Origin: an uncultured Spirochaetota bacterium
GTDB lineage: Bacteria > Spirochaetota > Brevinematia > Brevinematales > JAOACQ01
Assembly: GCA_963783575.1 (NCBI GenBank)
Contig: CAWAOD010000014.1
Location: forward strand, 128,001 to 192,000
Length of the DNA: 64,000 bases
Direction of reading: 5' to 3'
The notes beneath the pieces are model-generated. The model was not told the origin of the DNA. It saw nothing but the letters and a program-made list of their open reading frames with translations, and did no database searches. Every line of letters starts with the position of its first letter. Positions within the stretch are counted from its first letter, which is position 1. This document shows, piece after piece, positions 15,040 through 44,795 of the stretch. The position numbers and the translations under genes are program-made.

Positions 15040-15068
15040 TTGACAAGGCTATTATTTCGGGTTATAAT
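15040..15068 (+). promoter_or_regulatory. Consensus sigma70 promoter
   Basis: TTGACA-17 bp-TATAAT exact match, ~110 bp upstream of the ATG at 15179. Confidence 0.8.
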
Positions 15069-15178
15069 TGCTTTGGTGGCAGAGAGGTTCTCAATAATGG
15101 CAAAGATAACGAGTCATCTGGGAAATCTCGGTTTATTGTCAAATGATCTCACTGTAAAAATTAAAAAACGGGGGCAAC

Positions 15179-26058: not shown

Positions 26059-26173
26059 AGTAACCTCCCAAAATTAAAAATGAGTGGTTACAAATCGTAT
26101 ACAAATCGTACACACTTAATCCCATGATTTTTCTAACTATTTGATATGATAAGAATTAGAGTAAGAAAGGTAT

Positions 26174-26190
26174 CGGAGAGAGGGGGATTT
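26174..26190 (-). repeat. att site: copy of the tRNA-Ser 3' end
   Basis: CGGAGAGAGGGGGATT identical to 44710-44725. Confidence 0.85.
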
Positions 26191-26317
26191 TAATACCACG
26201 TAATATCTTACCCCGTATAGAATAACAAGACTTCAATAATATTTTACTGGCACCTGGCTGACAGAAAAATTCATTAAAATATTTTTAAGTTATTGTTAAG
26301 GCAGATGAAATGTCAAT

Positions 26318-28807
26318 CTATCCATTTATCTCATAACCAATCGCTTTGTAACCTTTCAGTCTTTTTTCAAACATCCTCTTTAACACTGGTTCATTTATAT
26401 CTGCATAATCATAAACTATTAATTCTTTTTTTGCGTGATGATTCCTCTGGAGTCTTCCGACATATTGTTCCAGTGTACCTCGCCAGGATATCGGCATTGC
26501 AAGGAAAAGAGTATCAAGCCTTGCATTATCAAATCCCTCTCCTATGTATTTCCCTGTTGAAATAATTATTCTTGGTTCATTGTCTGATAAATTGGCAAGC
26601 ATATCCAGTATTTCCTCAAGCTTCTTTTTACCCATACCGGCGCGAAGTACAATTATATTTTTGACGGCTGGTCTTAATTCTTTTTCAAAGAAATCCACAT
26701 GTTCTTTTCTTTCGGTAAGAAGGAGGGGAATTCTCTTATTTTCTAATGCTATTAAAACATCTTTAAGAATAAATTGGTTTCTGTTATTATCCTGAATTAA
26801 CTCTGAATAAATATCCTGAATGCTTTTATCATTTTGATTAGTGAAAAATCCCGAATAGGAACAAAAATTAGTATATTTTGGAATAACTGTGTGTTTCAAA
26901 ACCTTCTGATCAGCAATTTCTTTATTCTGTATTTTGAAACGGATTGGTCCGCACTGCATGAACAGGATAGGGTGGTGTCCATCCTTACGGATAGGAGTTG
27001 CAGTAAGGCCAAGTATAAATTTTGCTTTAACTCTTTTCATCACCTGCTCAAAACTAAATGCAGAAATATGATGGCATTCATCCACAATCACAAGCCCGTA
27101 TTCACTGACAATATTTTTAATTTTTCCATTTCGGTTTAAAGTTTGCAGCATGGCAATATCTACTATTTTTGTCGATTTATCCTTACTACCGCCAATCTGT
27201 CCAATTGATTTATCATTCAGTTCCAGAAATAATTGTAATCTTTGTTTCCATTGTTCCATCAATTGTTTTCTATGAACCAATATCAGGGTACTTACTTTTC
27301 TTTCTGCTATAATCGCTGCTCCAACCACCGTTTTACCGAAAGCTGTTCCTGCCGATAAGATTCCTATATCATATTTAAGCATCGATTTTAAAGCATCTTC
27401 CTGAATCGGGCGGAGCACACCTTTAAAATTTACTTCAATCGGAAAACCGATATTCCTTTTATCCTCTAAATTTACTTCAATTCGATTTATTTTTGCAAAT
27501 TCTGTCAAATCATCCAGACAACCCCTGGGGATACCTATATGGTTCGGGTATTCTTCGGTCGAACAGATTATCCTGGGTTTGCCGAAGGTATTGATACGCA
27601 TTGCCTGTGCTCTGTAAAATTCAGGGTTTTGAAATGCTGCTAATTTCCGTAATCTATTAATAAGGATAGAAGGAAGATTCCGTATATCAATAAAAATCAT
27701 ATTAGACAATACGGCGCCCAATTTATCCGGTAGATTATAGCAAATTAATGGTTCGTCTAAAGCCGGAGTCGGGACAATATTCCATGGTTCCAATTCATCA
27801 TCATTTAAGTGTGTTTGAATGGCAAAATAAGAAACTTGCAGATATTTCTCAGAAACTATTTGATTGATATCCGATTGGGACATTTTTTTGACCTGAGCTA
27901 AAAATGCCCATTGATCTGGAAAAGGTAAAGTAGATTCATTAATGAAGACACTATTTCCTTCCATTCTTGGCTTATATTGGAGAGGCATTGCGATCAGATT
28001 TCCGAAACCGCCTTTCGGTATTGTATCCTGGTTTGGAAAAAATCGGTCATAAGATGATAAGCTGATCTGATGTCTGCTGTCTATTGTTTTAGTCAGTATA
28101 ATAAAACCAAGTTTTCTGGCCTGGAATACTGGAATTTTTGTCTCAAAAAATATCCAGATATGCCCGCCATTGCCTGAACGTGAACGCTCAAGATATGCGG
28201 GGATGTTCAATTCCCTGCACACTTTCAAAAAGGCATAAGCATCTTCCTGCCATTTGAGGCAAGCTTCTTTATCATCAAAATCACATACCAGAAAGAAACA
28301 TTTTTCATCCTGAAGCATCGGAAATACACCGGCAGTTAATTTCCCGGAGAGATGGTCTGAGATAACTTTATCTGTAAGAGGAGCATATTTCTTATTTTCA
28401 CATTCACTACATTTTAAAGCCGGTTTCCGACAGAATTTCTTATCCCATTCATTGACGCAAACAGGAGAATACCCTGATTTTCCCTTTTGATTTTCCCATC
28501 TTGAAGGATAAACGTCTTCCCTTCCTTTAAATAGACTCCTGAAAAGCATTATTTTCAATTTATTATCAGATTGTTGATCAATAATTAACTGAGTATTTAA
28601 TAAATCTTTAGAATTAATGGCGTTTATTAAAAAGCTTTTTTTCTTTTCATCCTGATTAATTGGTCCGGGATTGTTTTTATCGATTTTCTTAATCGATAGT
28701 AAATTTCTTAATCTATAATTTTCTTCTTTTAATGTTTGATTATCAAGACTAAGTGCAGATAATTGTTTTTTCAATTCATTTAATTCTTTGCATTCGGTTT
28801 CAGTCAT
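26318..28807 (-). CDS. Archaeo-eukaryotic primase (TOTE-type) fused to SF2 helicase
   Basis: AEP motifs LFKGREDVY, CDFDD, SRSGNGGHIWIFF, DRFFPNQD, GFGNLIA; helicase motifs TAFGKT, DECHH, GLTAT, QYVGRLQR. Confidence 0.88.
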   Translation of the reverse strand: MTETECKELNELKKQLSALSLDNQTLKEENYRLRNLLSIKKIDKNNPGPINQDEKKKSFLINAINSKDLLNTQLIIDQQSDNKLKIMLFRSLFKGREDVYPSRWENQKGKSGYSPVCVNEWDKKFCRKPALKCSECENKKYAPLTDKVISDHLSGKLTAGVFPMLQDEKCFFLVCDFDDKEACLKWQEDAYAFLKVCRELNIPAYLERSRSGNGGHIWIFFETKIPVFQARKLGFIILTKTIDSRHQISLSSYDRFFPNQDTIPKGGFGNLIAMPLQYKPRMEGNSVFINESTLPFPDQWAFLAQVKKMSQSDINQIVSEKYLQVSYFAIQTHLNDDELEPWNIVPTPALDEPLICYNLPDKLGAVLSNMIFIDIRNLPSILINRLRKLAAFQNPEFYRAQAMRINTFGKPRIICSTEEYPNHIGIPRGCLDDLTEFAKINRIEVNLEDKRNIGFPIEVNFKGVLRPIQEDALKSMLKYDIGILSAGTAFGKTVVGAAIIAERKVSTLILVHRKQLMEQWKQRLQLFLELNDKSIGQIGGSKDKSTKIVDIAMLQTLNRNGKIKNIVSEYGLVIVDECHHISAFSFEQVMKRVKAKFILGLTATPIRKDGHHPILFMQCGPIRFKIQNKEIADQKVLKHTVIPKYTNFCSYSGFFTNQNDKSIQDIYSELIQDNNRNQFILKDVLIALENKRIPLLLTERKEHVDFFEKELRPAVKNIIVLRAGMGKKKLEEILDMLANLSDNEPRIIISTGKYIGEGFDNARLDTLFLAMPISWRGTLEQYVGRLQRNHHAKKELIVYDYADINEPVLKRMFEKRLKGYKAIGYEING

Positions 28808-28821
28808 GAAATACCTTGATT

Positions 28822-29207
28822 TTAAGCTTTTATCTTTTTTAAAATAAACTGTTTTACATTGTTGGCTAAGTCATAAGCTTTGATTGATTCTGCAAGGCTG
28901 GTGTGTAAAAATCGTCGGGATAACGGACGGAGATAGCATAATCTGTCAAATTACCGATATCCATTTTTCTAAAATCTTTATCTAAATCTATACAAATTGT
29001 TAACAAATACTCGAGATCGTGGGATTTTGGGATATTTACACTTTTTGTTAAAAGATAGGCTTTTATATATTTTTCAGCGGCTTGCTGTGAGTGAAAACAA
29101 ATAGCTCCGGTAGCTCTTTCTTCTTCCTCCTGGTTCATCTCATGCCTTACAACTTTTAAATCTTCATCGGCTTTTTTTATCCAATTATTTATTACTTCTT
29201 CATTCAC
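28822..29207 (-). CDS. HEPN-domain protein (frameshift near C-terminus)
   Basis: KADEDL, FHSQQAAEKYIKA, SHDL, RYP; shifted frame continues SLAESIKAYDLANNVKQFI. Confidence 0.85.
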
Positions 29208-29560
29208 AGCAAAACACCTTCCTTCAATGCCTGATAGGTTACTGTTCCCATTAAATTTTTATATTTTTCTATTTCTTGTTTAGAATGGATAATAATATCT
29301 GTCCCAATTGCCGGTATATGATTCTCAATATAAAACTGGGCCAACCGCTCTCTTATTTTCTTCATAACTTGAAGACTCAAATTTCTATCCTGATAGTTTT
29401 TTGTGATCAGTAATAAATCGTAATCAGTCTGTTTATCTGCATCTCCAGTTGCTTTTGAGCCAAAAAGATAAATTTTATAAACTGGAGAACCATAATCATT
29501 CATGGTTGAAATTACAATGTGCTTGAGTTGTTTTAAATTTTTATCCATAATCTTCTCCAA
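29204..29560 (-). CDS. Minimal nucleotidyltransferase (MNT)
   Basis: IYLFGSKATGD....DYDLL and C-terminal KEGVLL; overlaps the HEPN start. Confidence 0.88.
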   Translation of the reverse strand: MEKIMDKNLKQLKHIVISTMNDYGSPVYKIYLFGSKATGDADKQTDYDLLLITKNYQDRNLSLQVMKKIRERLAQFYIENHIPAIGTDIIIHSKQEIEKYKNLMGTVTYQALKEGVLL

Positions 29561-29756
29561 TATTATTATAAACTATAACTTATTTATCTGACAAGAAAAA
29601 GAATGATAAAAATTTTGGAATGATATGATAAATTTCTACCAAAATGAACCAATCTAACCAAAAAATTTCATTGTAAAATAAGGAGTTATGAATTTTAAAG
29701 TTATTATGGGCGACAAAATGTTTGTGTAATTTATTGGCATGTATAGAGTTATATGA

Positions 29757-29779
29757 TTCGGAGAGAGGGGGATTTGAAC
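29757..29779 (-). repeat. att site: copy of the tRNA-Ser 3' end
   Basis: TTCGGAGAGAGGGGGATT(T)GAAC matches 44708-44730 with one mismatch. Confidence 0.9.
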
Positions 29780-30034
29780 AGACTGTATATCTATGATATA
29801 TAAAGAGTAACAAAACTTCCAAAAAATTTCACTGACACCTGACTGACAGTACGAAACATGTGTTTTTTACCAAATCACGAAAAAAATTATAAAAATAATT
29901 TTTAGTGAAAATTAAATACAAAATAGTTTGCATGTTGCGCTTTGTGTTTGAATTTTCAGGTCGTGTCAAATAATTGAATTTATTTTAAAATTTAAAACAT
30001 TAAGTTTGAAATTATACATATTGTCAAAACCAGC

Positions 30035-30409
30035 TTAATTATCAGCAGTTAAATCTTTCAATTTTCTAGATTTCTTTTTATCAGATTGAAAGTGTTTATC
30101 CTTTAAAATCTTTTCCTTAATACCTTCGGGCTTATTATTGATCTTCTTTTTTCTTTTTTCTATTTCGAGATCCCTTTTTAATTTTTCATTTTTATCAGAA
30201 AGTTTTGTTATCAGTCTAGAAAGAGCGGTCTTTTTATTTTCAAACTGATCCCGTGAATCCTGCACACGAAAACGGATGCCTGACGAAGGGTGGTAAACCT
30301 GGATTGCAGATGATGTTTTATTTATATGCTGACCGCCCGGCCCGGAAGCAAGTACAGCCTTCATTTTCATTTCCTGTAAAACAATATTAGGATTTAAATC
30401 AAATAACAT
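30035..30409 (-). CDS. Peptide chain release factor-like protein (ArfB/YaeJ-like)
   Basis: SGPGGQHINK GGQ motif, SRDQFENK, Lys-rich C-terminal tail. Confidence 0.85.
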   Translation of the reverse strand: MLFDLNPNIVLQEMKMKAVLASGPGGQHINKTSSAIQVYHPSSGIRFRVQDSRDQFENKKTALSRLITKLSDKNEKLKRDLEIEKRKKKINNKPEGIKEKILKDKHFQSDKKKSRKLKDLTADN

Positions 30410-30415
30410 AAATGA

Positions 30416-30700
30416 TTAATAATGATGAAGTTCAAGTTCTTCTTCCATAAGAACAAATGGTTTTCCTGTTGCTTTTATATAAAGTGTTTCAGGTGCAATA
30501 TCTATTTCCCCATTTCCCCAAACAAGTGTTCCAAATTCAACCTTAAAATTTTTGAAGTATTCAGCATCTCTAAACTGATTGAAAACTTCTCCATTATTAA
30601 CATACCAGGTATGATCGGCAATTCCTGTTGAACCATCCTGGAATGTCAATTCAATTTGATAATCTTTTATATAATACGCTTTTATTACATTGAAATTCAT
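30416..30700 (-). CDS. DUF2442 family protein
   Basis: YQIELTFQDG and GTLVWGNGEIDIAPETLY. Confidence 0.85.
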   Translation of the reverse strand: MNFNVIKAYYIKDYQIELTFQDGSTGIADHTWYVNNGEVFNQFRDAEYFKNFKVEFGTLVWGNGEIDIAPETLYIKATGKPFVLMEEELELHHY

Positions 30701-30712
30701 AAGTTTTATCTC

Positions 30713-30972
30713 CTATTTTAAGGTTAGATTACAAAAGTATACTTTAGAATTGCTGCTAACTCCCAGTTTTCTAACAATTCCTCTTTATGCAATTCAGCCC
30801 ATTCTATAATCAATCCCAATGCTTTGGCGGAAAATATCCTTTTTAAAATCCTGAAATTCTGTATGGATATCAAAACCTCAAATTCATTATAAAACTCATG
30901 AAAATGCGGAGGGTTCTAATCGTCAGAAAACATCCTGATAATTATACCATAAAACTAACTAATTTCAGGCAT
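30713..30972 (-). pseudogene. DUF4160 family pseudogene
   Basis: MPEIS*FYGIIIRMFSDD*NPPHFH...EWAELHKEELLENW; two in-frame stops plus a frameshift. Confidence 0.85.
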
Positions 30973-31396
30973 CCTTGCCCCATACTATATCTTTATATAT
31001 ATATATTCAATATCGCCGCAAATCTGATTTCATTATAATTCAAACATTAATTACAGGCAAATTTCTAGCAAAATGAGCAAAATCAGCGAAAAAAAACCAG
31101 CGAAAAAAAAATGCAGCAAACCAAATAAATATTAATATAAGCGTCTAAATCATGAGCTTCTTTTTATGTCTCTTATTCATTATTCTTTTTTTTCCCTTTT
31201 TCCAGCAGGTTTGATATGTTACCAAATAATTTATGGCCCTGATCCTTTATATTAAATTAAATGAATTCTAATAATAGTTAGGGTATTTTTATCAAAAAGA
31301 AGGAAATTTTACAAGTTAATAAGGGTATTCATAAAAAATTCATCAGAATATATTTTTTTATTAAGTGAATATTATGAGATCTTATAATAATTTAAT

Positions 31397-31446
31397 TTGA
31401 CAATATACAATATATAAATTAATATTACTCTGAAATTAAAAGTACT
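31397..31446 (+). promoter_or_regulatory. Putative sigma70 promoter with adjacent palindromic operator
   Basis: TTGACA-17 bp-TAATAT followed directly by the imperfect palindrome TACTCTGAAATTAAAAGTA. Confidence 0.5.
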
Positions 31447-31569
31447 CTTAATATATTATTAAAAAACAGAAAAAAATTATAATAGTTGAAAGAAATATAC
31501 TGGCGTTTTGGCAGTATTATGATATCTTGTAATTAATTATTTTGATAAACTAATTGAAAAGGAGATAAC

Positions 31570-32502
31570 ATGAAAAATAGGTTTTATGGTTTGACGGTAA
31601 TTATGATCCTCTCTTCTCTTTTTTTTAACCTTTTAATGGCGAATGTGAATGGCTCCGGCAATACTATTTCCGAAACAAGGAAGGTGGATTCATTTAAGAG
31701 GGTAGAAGTGGGTGACTTACTGAAATCTTTCATTTTAGCCGGAGACAACTTGAATCCTGATAATTATCAGGTTGAAGTTATTCAGGGTGAAAAGGAAGGC
31801 TTGGCTATAGAAGGTGAAGAAAATATCCTCAAGGTCCTGAATACGGATGTCCAGAACGGAACCATCTATATTTATTTTGAAGAACCGGTACACCTCTCAA
31901 AAATCCTGCGCATAACCATCTATATGAAAAATATTGATGCGCTGGTAAATAGCGGACCAGGTTATCTTTATGCGAAGGGTGTGATTAATGCATCAGACCT
32001 TGAACTATCTATCAGTGGCTCAGGATCAATGATGTTGTCTTACCATGCCGATGATATCGAGGTAAATCTTTCAGGTTCGGGTAACGCTCTTTTAAACGGG
32101 AATTCGGATTCCTCAGATTGGAGTGTGAATGGTTCAGGCAGGATAAAAAATGGAAAGATTATCTCATCCAATAAAACGGAAATTCATATCAACGGTTCCG
32201 GAGATGTGAAGATGGATTTGACCACAAAATATCTGGAAAGCGGGCTATTCGGATCGGGTTCGCTCAGCCTTTCCGGTAGTGCTGAACAGCATAACATTAC
32301 CATAAGCGGATCTGGAAACATACTTTCAACAGACCTGCAAACAAAAATAAGCAAAGTAAAAATAAGCGGATCCGGCAGTGCGGAAATAAGCGTCAGAGAT
32401 CAACTTAAAGCAAATATCTCTGGAAGCGGCAGCGTTTATTATCACGGCAGGCCCGTAATTAATTCCCATTCTTCAGGAAGCGGTAGCGTGACACAGAGAT
32501 GA
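31570..32502 (+). CDS. Head GIN domain (DUF2807) secreted beta-helix protein
   Basis: Signal peptide, VNGSGN...R, many (I/L)SGSG repeats, ISGSGSVYYHGRP end. Confidence 0.88.
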   Translation: MKNRFYGLTVIMILSSLFFNLLMANVNGSGNTISETRKVDSFKRVEVGDLLKSFILAGDNLNPDNYQVEVIQGEKEGLAIEGEENILKVLNTDVQNGTIYIYFEEPVHLSKILRITIYMKNIDALVNSGPGYLYAKGVINASDLELSISGSGSMMLSYHADDIEVNLSGSGNALLNGNSDSSDWSVNGSGRIKNGKIISSNKTEIHINGSGDVKMDLTTKYLESGLFGSGSLSLSGSAEQHNITISGSGNILSTDLQTKISKVKISGSGSAEISVRDQLKANISGSGSVYYHGRPVINSHSSGSGSVTQR

Positions 32503-32696
32503 AATCGGTACCAGGCGGTATTAGTTTTAAACTCGATTTTATTGAGTATCGAGTTAATCAAGCCATTTATAATCTATATTGTTCATTATATTTTAATCTT
32601 GAGAGGATATAGCCTTTATATGATAGATCATTAACACAGTAAGAAGAAATTCGGAAATAAGTGTGGGTCTTACATTATTATTAGTAGGAATTTAGT

Positions 32697-32930
32697 ATGA
32701 AAATGTGGTTTATATTTATTATGATTGTTATGTTCACAATTCCTGCTTTAACTTTTACGCAGTCTTTAAGAGACTGTTTTTTTAGTGCAGCCTGGTCAGG
32801 GCAAACCGATGTGATCTGGGAATTGATCATGGATGGCGCCCAATGTCAATACTAAGAGGGATGATGGCGATCTGGTATAGAAAAGTTGATGTGATTAAGG
32901 TATTGATAAACGCGAAGGCCGGTGCCAAGT
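32697..32930 (+). pseudogene. Decayed secreted ankyrin-repeat gene
   Basis: MKMWFIFIMIVMFTIPALTFTQSLRDCFFSAAWSGQTDVI matches the start of the 36743 gene, then degenerates. Confidence 0.8.
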
Positions 32931-33015
32931 ACTGTCTGGGATATCTCAGCTATTCTATCATCGGATGGAATTATAAAATTCCTATCAATCATATTACTAA
33001 TAAGGAGTGTGGATT

Positions 33016-34330
33016 ATGAAGATTCAAAAACTATTGCAACAGATATTTGGACTTATACTGATTATTGCGTTTCTTGCCGGGTGTAGTGGAAAGGCCGTCA
33101 AAACTTTCATGGAAGGATTTTATCATCACAAATTTCAGCGCAATTCATTTGCCCGTTAACGGCGACGAGAATGAGCATCTGATCTTCGGGGCGATACCAA
33201 TTTCTCAACCGGCACAGAACCTCTCACCGGATTTAGCCGCCTTTCTTGGAAGATGGGAGGGCTATGATTACAGTCCGCCCGTTAAAAAGGATTACAAGGG
33301 CATACTGGTAATTCAGGAAATTACACCGAAGGGAGGCAATGCCTTCTTCTGGTCAGGCTCCAATCTTCAGTTCCCGTTCTGGGTTAAAGAGATTAAATTC
33401 AAAGTTGTGCCCGGTACCACGCCCTCGATACAATGGCAAGATGATCTGACCGGTGGGCCGAACGGAATGAGTGGAATGGGAACATTCATGTTTACCTATG
33501 ACCGCGAAAAGGGCGTTCTCAAAGGCGGCATAAATCTTCCGGGCGACAGCGCGCTCAAAGGGCCTCTCGAATTCAACCGGAATAAGTCCTTCTATGTTTA
33601 CCGGGACTACGCCAAATATCTGGCAAGCAAACGAATCTATCCCAAAGAATTTCTCACAAGTGATTTGCGGCGTTATGGCAGCGGGTATCTGCTCTACTTG
33701 CCGGAAGGCTACGAAGCCAATTCCAAAAAGACCTGGCCGCTGATCATTTTTTTGCATGGCACGGGTGACCGAGGTACAAATGTATTCCTGCTGGCAAAGG
33801 CAAGTCCGTATATGATGATCCGGGAAAAAGGGCCGCTCCCCTTTATTATTACCGCACCACTTTTAAATCTGTCGAAGAAGTTCCGTTGTTTTCCTGGACA
33901 TTATCTCGAAGGCGTGCTTGATGAAGTCATGGGAAATTACAGGGTTGATGATAAGAGGGTTTATCTGACAGGGATTAGCATGGGCGGTGAGGCAAGTTAT
34001 CGTTTTGCGATGGAACACCCTGAAAAATTTGCTGCAATTGCGTCTTTATCGGGATATATGGCGAAATATTTTCCCGCTTTCTATCGAGAAGAAGCGGAAA
34101 TAAAAGGCATTCCGTTAAGCCGGTTAAAGGGAGTTCCGGTCTGGGAGATACATGGATCGGATGATATTATTCTTTCGGTAAATAAAGCTCAGGATATGAT
34201 AAATGATTTTAATAATTCAGGAGTCAATATCAGGTTCACAATATTGAAAAATCATGACCACGATGTATGGACGGATACTTACTCAGATAGCAAGTTCTAT
34301 GACTGGCTGCTTCAACACCGGCGGTCTTAA
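33016..34330 (+). CDS. Lipoprotein with C-terminal esterase/phospholipase alpha/beta hydrolase (frameshift near 33100)
   Basis: Lipobox FLAGC from ATG 33016; YLLYLPEGY, FLHGTGDRG, GISMGG, HGSDD, HDVW. Confidence 0.82.
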
Positions 34331-34395
34331 AACATATGAAGCGTAAGGAATGGATTCATAAAGAATTCATAGGGTGAAAAAAAAGGAGGATAAAT

Positions 34396-35028
34396 ATGAA
34401 AAAGATAATTTTAATTTTGACAATATTTTGTTTTTCGATAACTTTGGGATTTTCTCAACAAAAACAATTAAAAGAGGATATAAAAACAGCTTTAATAATT
34501 ATTGATATTCAGAATGATTATTTCGACAAAGGTACAATGACTCTTGTCGGTTCTGATAAGGCAAGTGAAAATGCAAGACTGATTCTTGATAAATTTAGAG
34601 CGGATAGCTTAACTATAATACACATACAACATATTGCAACAAAACCGACCGCAACATTTTTCTTACCTAACACGATAGGAGTAGAAATTCATAAAAATGT
34701 AAAACCTTTAGAACAAGAAAAAGTTATAATAAAGAATTATCCAAATAGTTTCAGAGAAACAGAGTTGTTAGATTATTTAAGAACCAAGAAAATCAAAAAT
34801 TTGGTGATATGTGGAATGATGACACATATGTGTGTTGATGCAACAACAAGGGCAGCAAAGGATTTTGGATATAACTGTATTGTAATTGGAGATGCGTGTG
34901 CAACCAAAGACCTTGAAATAAATGGGCAAAAAGTTAAAGCAGAAGATGTACAGAAAAGTTTTTTAGCGGCATTAGATTCTTTTTATGCGACAGTTAAAAC
35001 AACAAAACAATATTTAGATGAAAAATAA
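34396..35028 (+). CDS. Isochorismatase-family cysteine hydrolase with signal peptide
   Basis: IIDIQNDYF, KNYPNSF, GMMTHMCVDAT. Confidence 0.9.
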   Translation: MKKIILILTIFCFSITLGFSQQKQLKEDIKTALIIIDIQNDYFDKGTMTLVGSDKASENARLILDKFRADSLTIIHIQHIATKPTATFFLPNTIGVEIHKNVKPLEQEKVIIKNYPNSFRETELLDYLRTKKIKNLVICGMMTHMCVDATTRAAKDFGYNCIVIGDACATKDLEINGQKVKAEDVQKSFLAALDSFYATVKTTKQYLDEK

Positions 35029-35149
35029 TAAAGCATATGACTGGTGAAATCCAAATCGGGCTGATGTACCAATGTAAATGCTAAGAAGAATGATGGCAGA
35101 CTGCTAAAAACTCAGCAGTTGATATAAAAACGGTATCACTGGAGGAAAA

Positions 35150-36700
35150 ATGTATTTTCAATCTTTACCAATAAAAAGAATATTAGGTTCGAGTATTTTT
35201 ATTATTATTGCGGCAGCGCTTGTTAAGCTGGTAATCCATCTCGCGACAGGTTCCAATTATGGTTATTTTATTGATGAACTTTACACTCTTGCCTGTGGAG
35301 AACATCTCTCGTTCGGTTATGTCGATATACCTCCGTTTGCTCCCTTTTTATCAAGAATAAGCGGTTTGATATTTGGTTATTCTTTATTCAGCATACATAT
35401 ATTCCCTGCGGTATCAGGAGCGCTCTTAATAGTTTTTGCCGGTTTATTTACCATGGAATTGGGCGGGAAAAGGTTTGCCGTGCTGTTGACCTGCATCGCT
35501 GTTTTGACATTAGTAGTCTGGCTCATCTTTAATTCCATGTTTGCGTATGATAATTTCGATCAGCTTTTTACCCTGATTTTCCTTTTTATGCTGCTGAAAT
35601 TAATCAAAACTGACAATCCCAGGCTGTTTATCAATCTGGGAATAATCGGGGGTATTTGTCTTCTAACAAAACTGACCCTTGTTTTCATTGTCATTGCTAT
35701 AATCCCGGCATTACTGCTGACAAAAAGCAGAAAATATTTCGCTACTAAATGGCTGTGGATTGCGCCTGTTATTGCAGCCGTTATGTCTGCTCCATACTTG
35801 CTCTGGCAGTACTTTCATCAATGGCCGCTTCTTGAATACCTTCAAGAATACTCGAAATACGGAACTTATCATGCAGACCCGCTTGAATATATCAGGATGA
35901 TTGCCCTTATGATAAACCCGATTTCCCTTCCTTTATGGCTTTCGGGATTTTATTATTATTTTTTTGATAAAGAGGGAAAGGCATATAAGATTTTCGGGTT
36001 TATTCCTGTATTCTTATTCTTTGTATTGTTTATTGTTATAAAGGCTAAGGCTTATATGATTATTGTTACTTTCATTCCATTAATAGCCGCAGGGGCCGTT
36101 TTATTAGGGAATCTTCTTGAAAACAGGAAATGGTTATGGCTGCGAACTCTTTCAATTATTCTGCTGCTGGTCCAGGGATGTTTGCTTTTGCCGATCAGCG
36201 TTCCGCTCTTGAAACCTGATAATCTTGCTGAATATTATATTTTTTTCAATAAGTTTACTAATAAAGTAAAAACTGATAATTCGAAGACTTCAATTTTTCC
36301 GCAAACAACTGCCGATCGTTTCAGCTGGGACGAGCTCGTAAAGAATGTGGCGGATGTTTACAATTCGCTTCCGTTAGAGGGAAGAAAAAAATGTACTATT
36401 TTCGGCGGTAATTACGGAGCAGCCGGCGCCGTTGACCTTCTCGGCGGAAAATACGGATTGCCCATGGCTATAAGCGGCCACCTGACTTATTATATTTGGG
36501 GCCCCGGCACAAACACCGGAGAAATTCTTATATCCATCGGCGTTCCAATGAAGAGGCTTGAAGGCTTTTATGATGAAGTAACTGAAGTCCGGAAGTTGTA
36601 CAATAAATATACAATGCCGAGAAATAATGTACCTGTTTATCTTTGCAGAAAACCAAAAATGACAATACAGGAAGCCTGGAAATTCACGAAGAGTTATTAA
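35150..36700 (+). CDS. GT-C glycosyltransferase (GT39/PMT_2, ArnT-like), copy 1
   Basis: YGYFIDELY, GYVDIPP, many TM helices, NYGAAGA, YIWGP. Confidence 0.85.
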   Translation: MYFQSLPIKRILGSSIFIIIAAALVKLVIHLATGSNYGYFIDELYTLACGEHLSFGYVDIPPFAPFLSRISGLIFGYSLFSIHIFPAVSGALLIVFAGLFTMELGGKRFAVLLTCIAVLTLVVWLIFNSMFAYDNFDQLFTLIFLFMLLKLIKTDNPRLFINLGIIGGICLLTKLTLVFIVIAIIPALLLTKSRKYFATKWLWIAPVIAAVMSAPYLLWQYFHQWPLLEYLQEYSKYGTYHADPLEYIRMIALMINPISLPLWLSGFYYYFFDKEGKAYKIFGFIPVFLFFVLFIVIKAKAYMIIVTFIPLIAAGAVLLGNLLENRKWLWLRTLSIILLLVQGCLLLPISVPLLKPDNLAEYYIFFNKFTNKVKTDNSKTSIFPQTTADRFSWDELVKNVADVYNSLPLEGRKKCTIFGGNYGAAGAVDLLGGKYGLPMAISGHLTYYIWGPGTNTGEILISIGVPMKRLEGFYDEVTEVRKLYNKYTMPRNNVPVYLCRKPKMTIQEAWKFTKSY

Positions 36701-36742
36701 TAAAACATCCGGCAAAATATTCATTAATTGGAGGAATTTACC

Positions 36743-37780
36743 ATGAAAATGCGGTTTAAATTTATTTTGGTTATTATGCTCGCAATCCCTGCTTTAACTT
36801 TTGCTGAGTCTTTAACAGACCGTTTGTTTTATGCGGCCTGGTCCGGGCAAACCGAAGTGATTCAAGAATTGATCAGGGAAGGAGCCGATGTCAATGCGCC
36901 GCATAAATATGAAAATTATACAGGCTATACGGCTTTGATGGCGGCGGCCTGGAATGGAAAAGTTGACACGATTAAGGCATTGATAGAAGCAAAGGCAAAT
37001 GTCAATTCTTCGAGTACAGTCGATATGGATAAAACAGGCTGGACAGCTTTGATGATGGCTGTGACCAGGGGAAATATCGACGCGGCTAAAGTATTGATAG
37101 GAGCAAAGGCAAATGTCAATGCCAGGATGAATAACGGCTGGACAGCTTTGATGGAGGCTGTGACCAGGGGGAATATCGACGTGGCTAAAGTATTGATAGA
37201 AGCAAAGGCAAATGTCAATTCTTCGAGTACAGTCGATATGGATAAAACAGGCTGGACAGCCTTAATGGAGGCGGCCTATCATGACAAAGTCGACGCGATG
37301 AAGGTATTGATAGAAGCTGAGGCCGATGTCAACGCTAAGAGGAATGACGGCTGGACGGCTTTGATGGCCGCGGCGCAGAGGGGGAACGTTGATGCGATTA
37401 AAGTATTGATCACGGCGGGGGCCGATGTCAATGCGACGCATAAATATGAATATTATACCGGTTATACGGCTTTGATGGCAGCGGCCAAGAATGGGAATGT
37501 TGACACAATTAAGTTATTGATAGAAGCAAAGGCCGATGTCAATGCCAGGAGGAATGATGGATGGACAGCCATGATGGAGGCGGCCGATTATGGAAAAATT
37601 GATGCGATTAACGCTTTGATCGAGGGTGGAGCCGATATCAATGCTAAGGATAATAACGGCAGAACGGCTCTGGGAGTAGCGGCCTGGTATGGGGGGAATG
37701 TGACGCGGTTAGCGCTTTGATCAAGGCAGGGGCAGATATCAATAAAGAGGAATGACGGCGGGACAGCTTTGAAATGTTCA
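36743..37780 (+). CDS. Secreted ankyrin-repeat protein (frameshifted tail)
   Basis: Signal peptide plus about nine G(W/Y)TALM.AA..G....K.LIEA.ADVN repeats; ORF stops at 37720 but ankyrin-like sequence continues. Confidence 0.9.
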
Positions 37781-37863
37781 TAAGAAAAAAATAGCCGTTG
37801 ATAAATAGCCGCAATGAAGCTGCTCTAAAAAATAGTTATATATTAATTTTATAAGGAGATATT

Positions 37864-39432
37864 ATGAAAAGTATTTTTAAGTTTAAGAAAGAAATATTGC
37901 TCGGGGAAACAGCGGTCATTTGCTTTTTTATTATTATTAAACTGGTTATCTGTCTCTATCCTTACCATTATGGGTTTTTCAGGGATGAATTTCTGTATAT
38001 TTCCCTCAGCGACCGCCTTGGCTGGGCCTATCTCGAAGTTCCGCCTATCGCGCCTTTGATTCTGGCGGGAGTCCGTTTTTTATTGGGAACTTCTTTCCTG
38101 TCTCTGCATCTGATACCGGCATTGCTCTGTTCCATTGTCATTATTGTTACGGCCTTGATGGTGAAAAAAATGGGCGGGGGCATTTACGCAACGATCCTCT
38201 GCCTGATTTGTGTAACTATGGCCCCCGGGTTTATCGGCAGTGGAATCACATATGATTACAATTCATTTGACATGCTTTTCTGGAATCTTTCCATCTATAT
38301 GATTTTACTTCTACTTGTCTCCGGGGATAAAAAATACTGGCTGTATTTCGGCCTCTTTGCCGGGCTTGGCCTGATGTCTAAAATTACCATGCTTTACCTT
38401 GGTTTTGCGTTATTCTTATCTTTTCTGGCACTAAAAGACCGGAAATACCTTTTTGACAAACGCTTTCTGTTCGGCGGCCTAATCTCGTTATTCATTTTTC
38501 TTCCCTTCATAATCTGGCAGGCTTATTATCATTTCCCGATCATAGATTATTTTAAAGGCTATGTAGGCAAGCTTTCTCATCCATCTCCGGTTCAATATAT
38601 TTTTACCCAGATCGACAATATGAACAGGTATGCTTTTCCAGTCTGGATACTGGGATTAATCTATTTTCTCTTCGATAAGGAAGGCAAAAAATACAGGGTC
38701 TTTGGGCTTGCTTATATTTTCCTCTGCGCTCTTTTTATTTCACAGAACGCAAAGTCTTACCTTATTTACCCATTTTATATGGTGCTTTTTGCCGGGGGAT
38801 CGGTTTTCATAACCCGGTTTATTAAAGAATATAAAATAAAATGGCTCAAAACGGCAGCAGCGGTCATCACTGCGGTCATAACTTTACTTATTTTACATAA
38901 TGGAGTGCTCACCTTACCTTACTGCCGGCCTGTCCTTTCGCCGGAAGCATTTATTAAAATGACAGGCGGCAAAAAATTTTCCGGTGATGAGAAGAGAAGC
39001 TCAGGATTGCTGCTTCCTACGGGTTTTGCCGACTGCTTCGGGTGGGAAGAATTGACTGGAGATGTCGCCGGTGTATATCAAAAATTGAGCGATCAGGATA
39101 AAAAGAAGGCATGCATTCTGGCTAATAATTACGGAGAAGCCGGCGCCCTTCATTTTTACGGTCCGAAATACGGCCTGTCCGATCCGGTCTGCGTCCATAA
39201 TATCTGGTATATCTGGGGGCCGGGAAACAATACCGGTGAAGTGATGATTTTTGTAGGCTATTACAAGGATTTTTATAAGATTCTAACTGCTAATTTCGAT
39301 AGTGTGGAAATTGCCGGGAAAACTGTAACAAAATACGCAATGCCGGATGAAAACGAACACGCGATTTTTCTATGCAGGGGATTGCATTGGCCGTTAAAGA
39401 AATGCTGGAAATATTTAAAGAATTTCAATTAA
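37864..39432 (+). CDS. GT-C glycosyltransferase (GT39/PMT_2), copy 2
   Basis: YGFFRDEFLY, AYLEVPP, NYGEAGA, YIWGPG; paralog of the 35150 gene. Confidence 0.85.
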   Translation: MKSIFKFKKEILLGETAVICFFIIIKLVICLYPYHYGFFRDEFLYISLSDRLGWAYLEVPPIAPLILAGVRFLLGTSFLSLHLIPALLCSIVIIVTALMVKKMGGGIYATILCLICVTMAPGFIGSGITYDYNSFDMLFWNLSIYMILLLLVSGDKKYWLYFGLFAGLGLMSKITMLYLGFALFLSFLALKDRKYLFDKRFLFGGLISLFIFLPFIIWQAYYHFPIIDYFKGYVGKLSHPSPVQYIFTQIDNMNRYAFPVWILGLIYFLFDKEGKKYRVFGLAYIFLCALFISQNAKSYLIYPFYMVLFAGGSVFITRFIKEYKIKWLKTAAAVITAVITLLILHNGVLTLPYCRPVLSPEAFIKMTGGKKFSGDEKRSSGLLLPTGFADCFGWEELTGDVAGVYQKLSDQDKKKACILANNYGEAGALHFYGPKYGLSDPVCVHNIWYIWGPGNNTGEVMIFVGYYKDFYKILTANFDSVEIAGKTVTKYAMPDENEHAIFLCRGLHWPLKKCWKYLKNFN

Positions 39433-39457
39433 AAATTGATTATAAGGAGAAATATTT

Positions 39458-40986
39458 ATGAAAAAAAAGTTTAAATTTATTATATTTGTCATACTAATAA
39501 TACCTGCACTAACTTTTACAGATTCTTTAACAGACCGCTACTTTCCCGGCGATGAATGGCGGATATCCACTCCTGAAGCTCAGGGAATGGATTCCGGGTA
39601 TCTTGTAAAGATGCTGGACTATGTTAAATCGAATAACCTGGAGATACACAGCTTAATAATTATAAGGCACGGATATGTAGTAATGGAGGCTTACGGGGAA
39701 CCTTTCAGAAAGGACATCATACATACACTTAATTCGGGCACAAAAAGTTTCACTTCGGCTTTAGTTAGTATTGCGATAAGGGAAGGCTGTATTAAAAACG
39801 TTGATCAAAAAATTGCCGATATATTTTCTGACAGGGATATTAAGAATCTTGATGATAAAAAAAAGTCCATATCCGTCAGACACCTGCTGACAATGAGTTC
39901 GGGGATTGAATGGGGAATGTGGGATTCGAATACTGGAGATTACTGGAGATCTGATAATTGGACTCAATATTTTCTTGATCTTCCTGTAAAAACGCATCCC
40001 GGCAAAGTTTATAATTATAATACAGGAGGCGCTAACCTTCTACTGGCGGCCGTTCAGAAAACAGCCGGTATAAAATTACAGGAATTTATAGAAAAGTTTC
40101 TCTTCAATCCGCTTGGAATCACCAAATACTATTGGCTGACCGATCCCCAGGGAATCAATATGGGCGGCGGAGGACTCGCTATAACACCGATGGAAATGGC
40201 CCGGTTCGGGTATCTTTACCTGAAAAACGGTAACTGGGATGGAACCCAGGTCGTGCCTGCCGAATGGGTTAAAAAATCCATGACAGAATATATTAAAGTA
40301 TATATGGGGGATCAGGGCTACGGATTCCTGTGGTGGAAAATCCCGTCCGGCGGTTTTGCGGCCGATGGTTACGGCGGTCAGCAAATAATGGTTATACCAC
40401 GGCAAGATATGGTTGTAGTAATTACCGCTAATCTTGATAATGCCTCTCATTGGCCGGTTGAAAACAATCTATGGAAAAATTCATAAACAGGTCGGTTGTT
40501 TCCGGTAAAAATATTCCGGAAGATCAGGGAAAAAATGATGCGTTTGCAGCCGCCATAAGTAATTTCAGTAATCCGGCGAAAGAAACCGCAATTTATATCC
40601 CTGAAAAGGCGAACGAATTATCAGGCAGAAAATATATTCTGGATTCCAATCCGTGGGGTTTGAAATCTATTATACTGAGTTTTAATGGAACAAATGAATG
40701 CATATATGAAGAAAATTATCCGGATTTAAACTTTAAAATGACAATCGGAATTGATGGAAAATACCGGGAGAACCGGTTTGCCGGAGATTCACGAAAACGG
40801 GAACTTTCTAATGGAAGATGGATTGACGATAATACTTTTGTTTATGAATATTACAAACCCTGGGCTGATATAAGTAAAATTCACTGTATCTGCCGGTTTG
40901 AAGCTGACATGATTTCTTTAAAAATTCAGGGAAAATCGACTGACGCAGTATGGTCACAAGTATTTACAGGTGTTATGGAAAAATAA
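39458..40986 (+). CDS. Serine hydrolase, class C beta-lactamase/AmpC-like fold (frameshift near 40478)
   Basis: SGTKS (SxxK), HLLTMSSG, YNYN, MARFGYLYL, GYGGQ; C-terminal domain in the next frame parallels the 43507 gene end. Confidence 0.88.
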
Positions 40987-41064
40987 TAAAAGATAGGGAG
41001 GTCTTTAAAAAAAGACATAATTATGGTTCATCCATCAAAATATACATTAATAGGAGAATTTAGT

Positions 41065-43507
41065 ATGAAAATTTGGTTTATAATTATTGTGGTTGTTATG
41101 ATTAGAATTCCGGCTTTAACATTTGCTGAGTCTTTAAAAGACCGCTTATTCGGTGCGGCTTCGTCCGGGAACGCCTATATGATTCAGGTATTGATCAAGG
41201 AAGGTGCTGATGTTAATGCCAAGAAGGATAACGGCTGGACGGCCTTGATGGAGGCGGCGTACAAGGGGAATGTCGACGTGATGAAGGTATTGATGGAAGC
41301 AAAGGCCGATGTCAACGCTAAGAGGAATGACGGCTGGACGGCCTTGATGGAGGCGGCGTACAAGGGGAATGTCGAAGCGATGAAGGTATTGATAGAAGCA
41401 AGGGCCGATGTCAATGCTAAAAGGATTAATGACGGCTGGACAGCCTTGATGGCGGCAGCGGACAAGGGGAATGTCGAAGCGATGAAGGTATTGATAGAAG
41501 CAAAGGCCGATATCAATGCTAAAAGGATTAATGACGGAATGACGGCCTTGATGGCTGTGACTGAAAGCGGGAATGTTGATGGAATTAAGGCATTGATAGA
41601 AGCAAAGGCCGATGTCAATGCTAAAAGGATTAATGACGGCTATACGGCCTTGATAGCGGCGGCCTCGCGAGGGAATGTCGATGCGTTGAAGGTATTGATA
41701 GAATCAGGGGCTGATGTAAATTCCGGAAATAATAACGGCGTGACAGCTTTAATGTGGGCAGCAGGAATGGGCAAAAACGACATAGTCGCGTCATTGATCA
41801 CTAAAGCCGATGTCAACATAACGGATAAAGACAACAGTACCGCCTTAATGTGGGCGGAAGAAAATTATCAAACTACGGCTGTTGAACTGCTGAAAAAGGC
41901 GGGCGCAAAATATTATTCTTTACCGAAATATATTTCTAAAGCAAAACCGGGGCTGAATTCAAAAAAGGATACTAACGACTACTTTCCAGGAGATGCCTGG
42001 CGGACATCCACTCCCGAAGCGCAGGGAATGGATTCTGAATATCTTATAAATATGCTTAATTATATTATTTCAAATAATGTAAATATTCATAGCATAGTAA
42101 TTATCCGGCACGGATACGTTGTAATGGAAGCTTATAGAGAACTCTTCGGAAAGGACGATATCCATATACTTGAATCATGTAGCTAAAAGTGTGACTTCCG
42201 CCCTGGTAGGCATCGCCATAAAAGAGGGCTATATTAAAAGCGTGAATCAGAAGGTTGTTCCGATCTTTACCGGCCAGGAAATAAAAAATCTTGATGAAAA
42301 TAAGCAGTCGGTAACGATTAAACACTTGCTGACTATGAGTTCGGGGATCAGCCAGCAAGGTAGTGTTTTTATGCCGCAGGAATATTTAAATTCAGGTAAC
42401 TGGAACATGTATTACCTCAATCAGCCGATGGTCGCGGAACCGGATAAATTATACGCTTATGATAACGCGGATGTTAACCTCCTTATGTTGATTCTGCATA
42501 AAACCAGCGGAATGAAAAATTCTGATTTTGCCGAAAATTTTCTTTTCAAGCCAATCGGCATAACCAATTACTACTGGCAGACAGATCCCCAGGGAGATTA
42601 TGACGGCGGAGGAGGACTGGCTATAACCCCAATGGAAATGGCCAGGTTCGGGTATCTTTATTTGAAAAAAGGCAATTGGCAGGGCAAACAAGTAATACCC
42701 GCCGATTGGGTCGAAGCATCATTGTCCGATCAAATCAAACCACCGGCCTGGCTTTCAAAGGACAAGGGGTATGGTTACCTCTGGTGGGAGCTGCAATTCG
42801 GCGGTTTTACAGCAAGCGGGCACGGCGGCCAGCATATATTGGTCATGCCCGAAAAAGACATGATAGTCGTTATAACTGCCGGACTTATCGATGAATATAA
42901 TAATTGGAGAGTCGAGGAATATTTGACTAAAGAATGCATAAATAAATCCATTATCTCCGGCGGCAGTATCCAGGAAAATCCTGTTAAACAGGAGGAGTTG
43001 AATTCTTCAATCCGGGATTTAGGAAACCCACCGGCAATAACAAAAGTTATTATACCAGAAACGGCGTACAAAATCTCAGGCAAGAAATATATCATAGATC
43101 AAAATCTTTTAAAAACCGTTTACTCTATAAATTTAAAATCCGTCATCTTAAGCTTTAACAGGACCGGTGAAAGCATTTTCGAAAGCGATTGGCTGGATAA
43201 TAATTTAAATATTTTCGACAGTTATTCGCCGAATAATAAGACGTCTCATAATATAAAAATGTCTGTAGGATTAGACGGTAAATATCGGGAAAGCGGATTT
43301 AATCCTCACAATGATTTGCATAAAAAACAATTTGTTCGCGGTAAATGGATAAATGAAAACACTTTTGTCGTAGAATTTTATTGGCCATGGAAGGTGGAAA
43401 GTAAAATTCAATTTACATTTCAATATAATGATGACAAAGTTAAAATAACAACGGAAGCGATGTCCGGAGATTTGCTGCAGGAATTTATAGGAATAATGGA
43501 AAAATAG
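41065..43507 (+). CDS. Ankyrin-repeat / serine hydrolase fusion (frameshift near 42179)
   Basis: Signal peptide, about eight ankyrin repeats, then YFPGDAWRTSTPEAQGMD; removing one base restores SVAKS (SxxK); HLLTMSSG, GHGGQ. Confidence 0.85.
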
Positions 43508-43578
43508 TAAAAAGGCAGGCCGGTGCTTAATAAAATATATTTATGAGATTTTATACTTAATTTTATAGGAGAATTGTT

Positions 43579-44163
43579 ATGGAAATAGATAAAGCATATG
43601 AGGATTTAGCTTTTATAAAACAGATGATTAATGCAAGCAGGAAGAAATTCGAAAATAACGGTGTGCATTACATTATTATCGGCACCTTGTTTGTCGCAGC
43701 GACAGCGTTGACATATTTATTTATTGACCTTAGGATGTACAATCTAATTACACCTATATGGATAATATTTATTCTCTCATTAGTTGCTTTACATATCTGG
43801 AGAAGGTTGAAGTCAGTTAAATCGCCTACTTCGCCAACGTTCGGAGAAATAATTTATAATAACTTATTAATGTCCATTACTGCAGTAATAATTATTCTAT
43901 ATGTAATTACCATCGTACACAGGCTTGGTTCGTCAATATTCCTGGGCATAATGTCTATTGTTCTAGGACTAGGGTACTATGTATCGGGAGTAATAATGCA
44001 GTCAGGGTGGATGAAGGCACTTTCTTTCGGTTGGGCCGTGGGGGGAATTGTGATTTTCTTTTTACCCGATTATATAACCCTGCTTTTTATGGCCATTATT
44101 ACTATTCTTTTTGAACTCATCCCGGGTATTATCATGTACGCGACATCAAAAAAGGGACAATAA
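43579..44163 (+). CDS. Membrane protein preceding a wHTH regulator
   Basis: EDLAFIKQMI N-terminus plus about six TM helices. Confidence 0.7.
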   Translation: MEIDKAYEDLAFIKQMINASRKKFENNGVHYIIIGTLFVAATALTYLFIDLRMYNLITPIWIIFILSLVALHIWRRLKSVKSPTSPTFGEIIYNNLLMSITAVIIILYVITIVHRLGSSIFLGIMSIVLGLGYYVSGVIMQSGWMKALSFGWAVGGIVIFFLPDYITLLFMAIITILFELIPGIIMYATSKKGQ

Positions 44164-44166
44164 TAT

Positions 44167-44466
44167 ATGCCTGATTATGATTATAAAAAGCTTGATAATG
44201 TACTTCATTCTCGAATCAGGCTTGCTATAGTTTCTGTTATGATAGGAGCCGGTGAGATTGAATTCACAGCTTTGAGGGACGCTGTTGGGGCTACTGACGG
44301 AAACATGAACACTCATTTGAAAAGACTGGAAGAAGAGGACTACATATCCGTCGAGAAAAAGTTTATAAACAGGAAACCAACAACAATTTACCGTCTTACT
44401 AAAAAAGGAATAGGTAACTTTGAGGAATACATAAAAGAACTTGAAAAGTTCATAAAGAAAAATTAG
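44167..44466 (+). CDS. Winged-helix transcriptional regulator (MarR/ArsR-like)
   Basis: HSRIRLAIVS, TDGNMNTHLKRLEE, KPTTIYRLTKKG. Confidence 0.9.
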   Translation: MPDYDYKKLDNVLHSRIRLAIVSVMIGAGEIEFTALRDAVGATDGNMNTHLKRLEEEDYISVEKKFINRKPTTIYRLTKKGIGNFEEYIKELEKFIKKN

Positions 44467-44709
44467 TCATTGATAAATACTTGCGATGAAGTCACTCAAA
44501 AAACTGCCGTAAAACACATGGGCCATATACTAAATCACTATATGCCTCATAATATGGTTATTGCTGATCCAGAGAATACAATTTCTAGCCAATCCAACCA
44601 ATTTAACCAAAGAATTTCAGTATAAAATACGAAAAATATAGAATTACATGAACAAGAATTTTCAGCAATAATCATGTATCTAATTGTTATATATAGAATT
44701 ATATAGTTT

Positions 44710-44795
44710 CGGAGAGAGGGGGATTCGAACCCCCGGTACATTGCTGTACACGCGCCTTCCAAGCGCGCTCCTTTAAACCACTCGGACATCTCTCC
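44710..44795 (-). tRNA. tRNA-Ser(GGA)
   Basis: Reverse complement GGAGAGATGTCCGAGTGGTTTAAAGG-CGCGC TTGGAAG GCGCG-long variable arm-GGTTCGAATCC-CTCTCTCCG; CCA not encoded. Confidence 0.97.

Follow-up and report, generated by a model that had tools for sequence, protein, structure and literature searches.

Structure of the tRNA-Ser(GGA) locus

We analysed a window of 64,000 nucleotides (G000:C14:128001-192000) from a metagenome-assembled genome (MAG) of an uncultured Brevinematales bacterium (G000; 4.9 Mb, 18 contigs, 89.85% complete), in which two integrase-free islands, A and B, are stacked at the 3' end of a tRNA-Ser(GGA) gene. Positions without a prefix are window coordinates; all others are given as genome and contig (Gxxx:Cn), and the other G numbers denote relatives. 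The 16-nt tRNA 3' end, CGGAGAGAGGGGGATT, occurs at 26174, 29759 and 44710, successive copies being 3585 and 14951 nt apart. These copies of the attachment (att) site delimit island B (between att 26174 and att 29759; 3,585 bp) and island A (between att 29759 and att 44710; 14,951 bp). The end of an island that faces the tRNA gene is called near, and the opposite end far. The features of the site are as follows.

44710..44795, minus strand: target gene tRNA-Ser(GGA), of which the final 16 nt (44710-44725) form att copy 1
44580..44709: near (tRNA-proximal) end of A; AT-rich TATAGAAT block adjoining att, three CCAA repeats at ~44589-44610, arm block absent
29759..29849, plus strand: far end of A, comprising att copy 2 (29759-29774) and, at a distance of 72 nt from the start of that copy, the arm pair ACTGACA-4-ACTGACA (29831-29848)
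29565..29758: near end of B; 29631-29758 holds the AT block and CCAA repeats and lacks the arm block; also contains the promoter-like site of the next line
29594-29565: promoter-like TTGTCA-18-TATAAT in the near end of B, pointing at the MNT-HEPN gene pair of that island
26174..26264, plus strand: far end of B, comprising att copy 3 (26174-26189) and, at a distance of 72 nt from the start of that copy, the arm pair ACTGGCA-4-GCTGACA (26246-26263)

A fourth att copy was found at G000:C14:98732, 55.4 kb farther out than att 26174, which brings the copies in tandem at this tRNA 3' end to four. A degenerate far end of the A/B type also lies at G000:C14:53081 (far-end model described below, E = 2e-5). 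The array extends over ~126 kb and is larger than the initial annotation of this DNA had it.

Shared ends of islands A and B

The ends were compared pairwise, with 2000 dinucleotide shuffles and 5000 GC-matched genomic windows as controls. The far motifs at 26223-26264 and 29808-29849 were identical at 35 of 42 positions without gaps, and each stopped 90 nt from the start of its att copy. With att excluded, their local score was 53, compared with a maximum of 29 among the shuffles (0/2000 reached 53) and 42 among the genomic windows (0/5000). The near ends were 71% identical over 156 nt (E = 1e-10), the top non-self match within the genome. Their score of 56 exceeded the shuffle maximum of 35 (0/2000 reached 56). 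One of the 5000 genomic windows scored 174; when windows overlapping either of the two ends were removed, none (0/5000) reached 56. Both islands retain the att core on both sides and the whole far arm, and the near arm block is absent from both.

The initial annotation had placed islands of ~3.6 kb and ~15 kb between three tRNA-Ser 3'-end copies, with far ends closing 90 bp from att, collinear near ends and units stacking at the tRNA. All of this stood, and both end pairs exceeded every shuffle. Its likening of the units to integron cassettes did not stand. The ends gave no attC-like fold (z = +1.46 for the near end and -0.65 for the far end of B), and their layout of spaced arm sites is that of lambda-type integrases. 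In lambda, att has a long P arm and a short P' arm, and excision requires the P2 arm site (PMC4880445; here and below, statements refer to the accessible parts of the cited sources). The far end resembles P' in being short with paired arm sites, and the near end resembles P in being long, with repeats and arm sites (PMC4880445). By this analogy of layout, the ends are lambda-type att arms and not integron sites.

We regard an integron-type array formed by single-stranded attC recombination, or an assembly artefact, as highly improbable. Integron-integrase-like genes, as judged from their translations, do occur elsewhere, one broken at G000:C5:457-458 kb and another at G011:C6:427-428 kb. However, the ends are direct repeats of the tRNA end with distant arm pairs, and they do not fold. 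Neither intI nor attI was present at the head of the array, which begins at the tRNA on a contig (C14) without a PF00589 match. As for an artefact, divergence among the copies is 64-71% and other genomes contain the same joint, which would not be expected from assembly error. The broken gene (G000:C5:457129-458100), again labelled by reading of its translation, is followed by short ORFs and is possibly a chromosomal integron remnant.

Occurrence of the same ends in this genome and in relatives

A far-end model was built from 17 sequences, A and B included, and searched in 43 genomes of the class. It gave 38 matches, a few of which were cross-hits to near arms, in six of the 43 genomes, all in the family of the window (f1); no match was found outside f1 among the 43. 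A near-arm model searched over 151 sampled genomes of the phylum matched three, none outside f1. The distance from att to arm was 72-73 nt in 17 of 18 far ends. A far-end hidden Markov model (HMM) built without this genome and without att found the ends of B and A and a third end on C15 (E = 1.9e-15, 3.9e-10 and 1.2e-8, respectively), with att in register each time. This third end of the A/B type in G000 closes a 3-kb unit at tRNA-Ser(TGA), whose cargo includes a distant homologue of the membrane-protein and HTH_34 pair of A.

Tandem arrays of units of 0.8-7 kb were present in G003, G006, G010 and G011, at tRNA-Ser(GGA) and tRNA-Ser(TGA), and the whole B-att-A joint matched two G011 joints lying 3.7 kb apart (71-72% over ~240 nt). 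Core DNA of G000 is mostly 64-72% identical to that of G003, G006 and G011. Many array units hold a toxin-antitoxin-like pair (HigB, ParE-like, PIN, BrnA/CopG, RelB, AbiEii, NT-HepT or Fic) or TIR proteins. Both islands were absent at this tRNA in G001, a member of the same genus (57% complete, one contig here). Genes shared with C14:36.8-46.6 kb are reached within ~8 kb of the tRNA in G001 and only after ~126 kb in G000, on the same strand and in a different local order. A pattern scan of contigs gave eight stretches in three assemblies.

Gene-less units of ~110 bp were also observed after tRNA-Ser(TGA), (CGA) and (GCT) in this genome (G000:C15:222927-223030 and 225930-226034, L105; C11:224581-224682 and 203153-203255), with four weaker copies on C3, C11 and C15. 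They have a terminal hairpin (z = -2.4 and -2.2), and most end in another tRNA 3'-end copy, resembling microCIMEs (the gene-less form of the cis-mobilizable elements treated below). Among five relatives tried, the tRNA part alone was matched in four. In G006, a 7-kb integrase-free unit beside tRNA-Ser(TGA) (G006:C2:22820-29819; L049:2821-9820) encodes two TIR_2/ThsB-like proteins and a TPR-S/cyclase protein, and is possibly a defence module.

Absence of an integrase and identification of parent elements

Neither island contains an integrase. No recombinase family was found among the 17 island ORFs scanned, and none of the 15 PF00589 matches in G000 lies on contig C14. tblastn of nine integrases against A and B returned a single match (E = 0.076), located within a serine-hydrolase gene of A. 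Integrase remnants were not found inside A or B by these three methods, in agreement with the original claim.

In the relatives G010, G011 and G005, the gene for a tyrosine integrase of 353 aa, intact and 83-100% identical to P0004, begins directly inside a near end at tRNA-Ser(GGA). The same integrase runs off the contig at tRNA-Ser(TGA) in G003, and an internally deleted relative lies beside a near arm in G011:C2. P0004 has a PF00589 match and conserves the catalytic residues R198, H285, R288, H316 and Y325; this type of integrase also matched phrog_1 (E = 2.4e-49), aligned from residue 4 at the N-terminus. Integrase searches of metagenome and viral contigs yielded three matches, one at 100%, one at 83% and one weak. 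The element in G005 is a prophage, with genes for capsid, protease, portal and terminase, whereas that in G010 encodes a repressor, a replication initiator, ParA and a restriction-modification pair (a methylase and an EcoRII-C protein). No relaxase was found in Pfam or PHROG scans of chosen ORFs of the parent elements, whose assembled parts are cut by contig ends, and the helper segments read showed no conjugation genes.

The parent near ends are ordered as att, AT block, CCAA repeats, ACTGRCA pair, second inverted pair and integrase. Far ends are ordered as att, AT block and the same ACTGRCA pair as in the parent near arm. Every integrase-bearing parent has a 63-bp arm block in its near end; A, B and the C15 unit lack this block there. 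We considered G011:C6:406693 as the far end of the G011 parent; the gene order there is inverted relative to G010, and the link is not claimed.

The earlier interpretation of A and B as non-autonomous units of a family with conserved ends was thus borne out. Units with other cargo were found in G000 and in relatives, an integrase-bearing parent type turned up in relatives, and G001 has neither island at this tRNA.

A matching integrase was not found in G000, G006 or G008. The best match in G000 was an Xer-like gene (E = 2.6e-6), and a 72-row profile found only Xer-like, paired and broken recombinases. Paired tyrosine recombinase genes (~450 and 368 aa) occur in five copies, two of them identical (G000:C5:3402-4858, 15009-16465 and 30933-32380; C15:6573-8020 and 26288-27747), and we take them to be RIT-like.

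Near arms and a predicted integrase promoter

The near-arm model gave 21 matches in relatives, of which 16 were training sequences; its only match in G000 was a cross-hit to the far arm of B. Of the 21 blocks, three adjoin an integrase that is intact, one adjoins an integrase truncated by the contig end and one a decayed integrase. One lies at a contig edge, and the remaining 15 have no integrase trace, meaning neither protein nor DNA within 1.5 kb of the near arm. For eight of these 15, att was absent within 330 nt.

A promoter-like TTGCCA-17-TATAAT overlapping the near arm faces the integrase in all five parents (10-12/12), and it scored 9-11/12 in 11 integrase-free units. It persists without the heptamers at 31032-31060 and at G011:C6:406521. 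No conserved promoter was found in the far ends (7-9/12). Because the first cargo ORF is oriented with the promoter in just nine of 15 units, use of the promoter by cargo is a lead only. Two candidate sites were rejected. The single CTGACA in the near end of B is more simply the -35 box of a promoter than a surviving arm site, and the ATTATAAT block, considered as an IHF site, is the -10 box of the predicted integrase promoter. The AT block may be IHF-like and the CCAA repeats may be Xis-like; we treat these labels as leads. In G010:C25 (L139:3480-3540 and 9660-9720), two near arms pass straight into far-type flank without att; the joint has apparently collapsed between two direct-repeat arm pairs.

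Proposed movement of the units

We think it probable that the array grew by helper-driven accretion of the type known from cis-mobilizable elements (CIMEs), and that A and B would move only in cis, as passengers of an element bringing the 353-aa integrase. A and B probably descend from prophage- or satellite-like elements that were stripped down. The integrase would bind the paired ACTGRCA heptamers and recombine within the tRNA 3' end, in the way that lambda Int uses its arm and core sites. A newcomer would insert at the tRNA and push older units outward, so that each internal joint (older near end, att, newer far end) would be attP-like. A helper with a whole near arm could then leave alone via the adjacent joint, leaving no integrase trace, or it could pair with a more distant far end and carry the intervening units along. 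In this way far ends would be retained in preference to near ends. Since the near arm overlaps the predicted integrase promoter, the promoter may persist for cargo once the arm sites decay, and loss of an att core may fuse units into bigger islands such as A. Decay is directly visible in the deleted integrase beside the near arm in G011:C2 and in an integrase remnant at 25690-26058. Since this MAG yielded no helper, A and B are probably stranded in it for now.

Several observations weigh against accretion in cis. An integrase remnant was found in one of 16 near arms without a functional integrase (the contig-end case being excluded), below the expectation for random decay. Eleven integrase-free units keep the arm block ungapped, with 81% mean column identity to the parents, which fits both ends being in use. 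No contig carries a parent with both ends, owing to contig breaks, and the link between integrase and far end therefore rests on the common heptamer pair; G005 gave no far-end match. Island A touches the tRNA while the integrase remnant lies farther out, unlike the order of CIMEs in Streptococcus salivarius. Finally, with the MAG at 89.85% completeness, a helper may be missing from the assembly.

On a different view, the units form a persistent family of non-autonomous cassettes. The integrase of a visiting prophage or satellite, acting in trans, would cut each of them out as a separate circle and put it back at a tRNA-Ser, and A and B would be worn members. We consider this rather unlikely. 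The absence of an integrase trace in 15 of the 21 near-arm blocks of relatives, with cargo beginning right behind the arm, is consistent with it, as are the units of 0.8-1.5 kb that contain little besides a toxin-antitoxin pair. In G006 (two contigs, 94% complete), the near-arm model matched seven times and an integrase of this kind was not found. G006 and G010 share an integrase-free GH43 unit at 95.4% identity over 1245 nt, compared with 69-75% in their core flank, and a TOTE-Fic unit is collinear through both ends between G006 and G003 (81-85%) with different neighbours. However, A and B lack the arm block. The GH43 match covers the stretch between the arm pairs and not that between att sites, the near att being gone in both genomes, and cis transfer accounts for the same sharing of units. 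Near-arm conservation is partly built in, because 11 of the 15 were chosen by the arm-site pattern and used in model training. The near arm may also persist as a promoter, although the proportion of first cargo ORFs facing its way (9/15) is modest for this.

Movement in trans is doubtful for A and B themselves, because the 63-bp block is absent from their near ends and a matching integrase was not found in the 89.85% complete MAG. For intact units of relatives it is plausible, and some of their integrase-free units do keep both ends whole, for example G006:C2:14395-18156. In its fullest form, which we put forward tentatively, one Brevinematales family may run an integron-like exchange from lambda-type att sites. 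Small cassettes without an integrase, many of them with a toxin-antitoxin pair, would retain both arms and use the integrase promoter as cassette promoter. The integrase of a visiting prophage would move them in trans among several tRNA-Ser genes, and they would pass between species as units.

It is also conceivable, but improbable in our view, that the units are inert scars of old insertions, with cargo fixed or moved via insertion sequence (IS) elements or homologous recombination and motifs kept by descent or as promoters. The lack of a matching integrase in G000, G006 and G008 fits this, and att cores are often degenerate or lost. Homologues of A's cargo occur elsewhere in G000 and in relatives with no such ends nearby, the tRNA-proximal part of A (A2, below) has no far end of its own, and the far-end tree does not group the TOTE units. 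Against this, the far-end spacing is fixed over genomes whose core DNA is ~70% identical, and there is no conserved far-end promoter to explain it. The 95% identical unit in two species points to recent movement.

Cargo of islands A and B

The cargo regions of the two islands and a boundary within A are as follows.

31131..44579, plus strand: cargo of unit A2, ~13.4 kb; DUF2807, esterase, isochorismatase, two PMT_2, two ankyrin and two serine-hydrolase (beta-lactamase fold) genes, a membrane protein and an HTH_34 protein
31029..31091: internal degenerate near end within A; CCAA block kept, arm heptamers lost, no att after it
30035..30975, minus strand: cargo of unit A1; RF-1-domain (ArfB-like) ORF at 30035-30409, DUF2442 ORF at 30416-30700 and an upstream partner gene broken by a stop
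28866..29560, minus strand: MNT-HEPN pair, toxin-antitoxin-like; minimal nucleotidyltransferase at 29204-29560 and HEPN at 28866-29207
26318..28807, minus strand: AEP-TOTE primase / SF2 helicase, 829 aa

For an HMM trained on near ends of relatives, with this genome excluded, the internal near end at 31029-31091 was the top match genome-wide (E = 8.7e-4); this end keeps a promoter-like TTGCCT-17-TATAAT (31060-31032, minus strand). Island A is therefore read as two fused units, A1 (1.4 kb) and A2 (13.4 kb), and no far end belonging to A2 itself was found. The stop-broken gene upstream of the DUF2442 ORF in A1 is presumably of the DUF4160 type. Ankyrin-repeat genes in A2 stand in tandem (36728-37720 and 41023-42186) with a decayed third copy (32697-32930). 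They interleave with the duplicated PMT_2 and serine-hydrolase genes, which have common signal-peptide DNA, and ORF 41023-42186 is an ankyrin fused to a hydrolase start.

Homologues of the TOTE gene occurred at six places in four of 12 family genomes, and at the DNA level the TOTE gene of B has 75-80% identity with its counterparts in G003, G006 and G011. The MNT-HEPN pair and near end of B were 82% identical to G011:C5:369749-370627, a unit with other cargo, and this match ends at the TOTE start codon. On these alignments, island B is a mosaic of a TOTE part and a part comprising MNT-HEPN and the near end. Co-descent of far ends with the TOTE gene was considered and not retained, as the far end of B is 80% identical to that of one TOTE unit and equally to that of an unrelated unit, and the tree does not resolve them. 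A TOTE gene with a truncated Fic gene and a small partner also lies at G006:C2:1679064-1682200 (L092), beside an att with yet another arm type in a tRNA-Ser(GCT) array; cargo therefore passes between end types.

Unit C and a second end type

Beyond att 26174 lies unit C (55.4 kb, from 26174 to G000:C14:98732), which reaches outside the window and has a different end.

26080..26173: near end of unit C, second end type with CAAATCGTAC repeats
25690..26058, minus strand: N-terminal remnant (122 aa) of a tyrosine integrase of the second type, 63% identical to P0001 (353 aa, PF00589)

Another near end of this type lies past G000:C14:98732 (93% over 90 nt). The second end type (CAAATCGTAC repeats; regions 25690-26173 and G000:C14:98640-98870) has its own integrase family (P0001-P0003) and uses the same tRNA. 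In G008 (L016:720-1949) it heads a prophage-like element. Near-identical near ends of this type were found at two or three different tRNA-Ser genes per genome (L015 and L098 in G006; L016, L099 and L100 in G008), which suggests target switching between tRNA-Ser isoacceptors. Transposase genes or remnants of the IS21, DDE_Tnp_1 and DUF772 types lie within unit C (8797-10837, 13443-14615 and 18142-18743).

Comparison with known systems

Islands A and B are integrase-free units that integrase-based island finders miss, although they head ~126 kb of accreted DNA here. Their family offers a compact test set, with one integrase, its parents, units with whole ends and units that have lost one arm. 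Such a set allows a direct test of whether islands without an integrase are mobile in cis, mobile in trans or immobile, which has mostly been argued from streptococcal integrative and conjugative elements (ICEs). Recycling of an integrase promoter for cargo is also suggested, and accretion is extended to an uncultured spirochaete lineage with phage-type helpers. Our literature searches, one for such cassettes and one combining Brevinematales with integrase, found no paper; subscription papers and bioRxiv supplements lay outside the search. The accessible parts of two preprints (bioRxiv 10.64898/2026.10.07.757358 and 10.1101/2023.11.06.565760) contained nothing on such units.

The principle, accretion of integrase-less units, is already known from streptococci. 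CIMEs have lost integration and transfer genes, keep attL and attR, and move by accretion (PMC5704250; PMC7563491). In the ICESt1/ICESt3 family and tRNA-Lys islands, CIMEs and microCIMEs comprise units with cargo (1.2-13 kb) and units without genes (130-220 bp) (PMC5704250; PMC7563491). Like CIMEs, A and B have neither integration nor transfer genes, are bounded by att and are stacked at the 3' end of a gene, and from their sequences they would work like CIMEs. Unlike CIMEs, the parents seen here are a prophage (G005) and satellite-like elements with repressor, rep and ParA genes (G010) rather than ICEs or integrative and mobilizable elements (IMEs). Several tRNA-Ser isoacceptors are used here, integrase-free units adjoin the tRNA, and the near arm of A and B is incomplete. 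Given this near arm and the phage- or satellite-like parents, A and B are putative CIMEs in the strict sense. In S. salivarius, CIMEs were always farthest from the target gene, in a survey that could see only CIMEs in tandem with ICEs or IMEs (PMC7563491).

Among other integrase-free islands, those at ssrA in Dehalococcoides are arranged in tandem and cut by direct repeats of the target gene; 15 have no integration module and were proposed to be cis-mobilizable (PMC3146451). They depend on the serine recombinase DsiB and a tmRNA target, whereas a tyrosine integrase and tRNA-Ser are used here (PMC3146451). In Klebsiella, asn-tRNA islands without their own integrase were proposed to be excised by the related integrase of another island (PMC4891358). 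Those are few and large, in contrast to the many small toxin-antitoxin-bearing units arrayed here (PMC4891358). In Prochlorococcus tycheposon islands, successive insertions at one tRNA displace older ones, and partial tRNAs and integrase fragments remain (bioRxiv 10.1101/2020.12.28.424599). The tycheposons described encode their own integrase (bioRxiv 10.1101/2020.12.28.424599), whereas A and B have no site-specific integrase of their own, and in this they also differ from elements resembling phage-inducible chromosomal islands (PICIs). Finally, in phage-ICE tandems, a phage integrase excises a tandem formed by accretion (PMC13651849). Both partners are functional in that case (PMC13651849).

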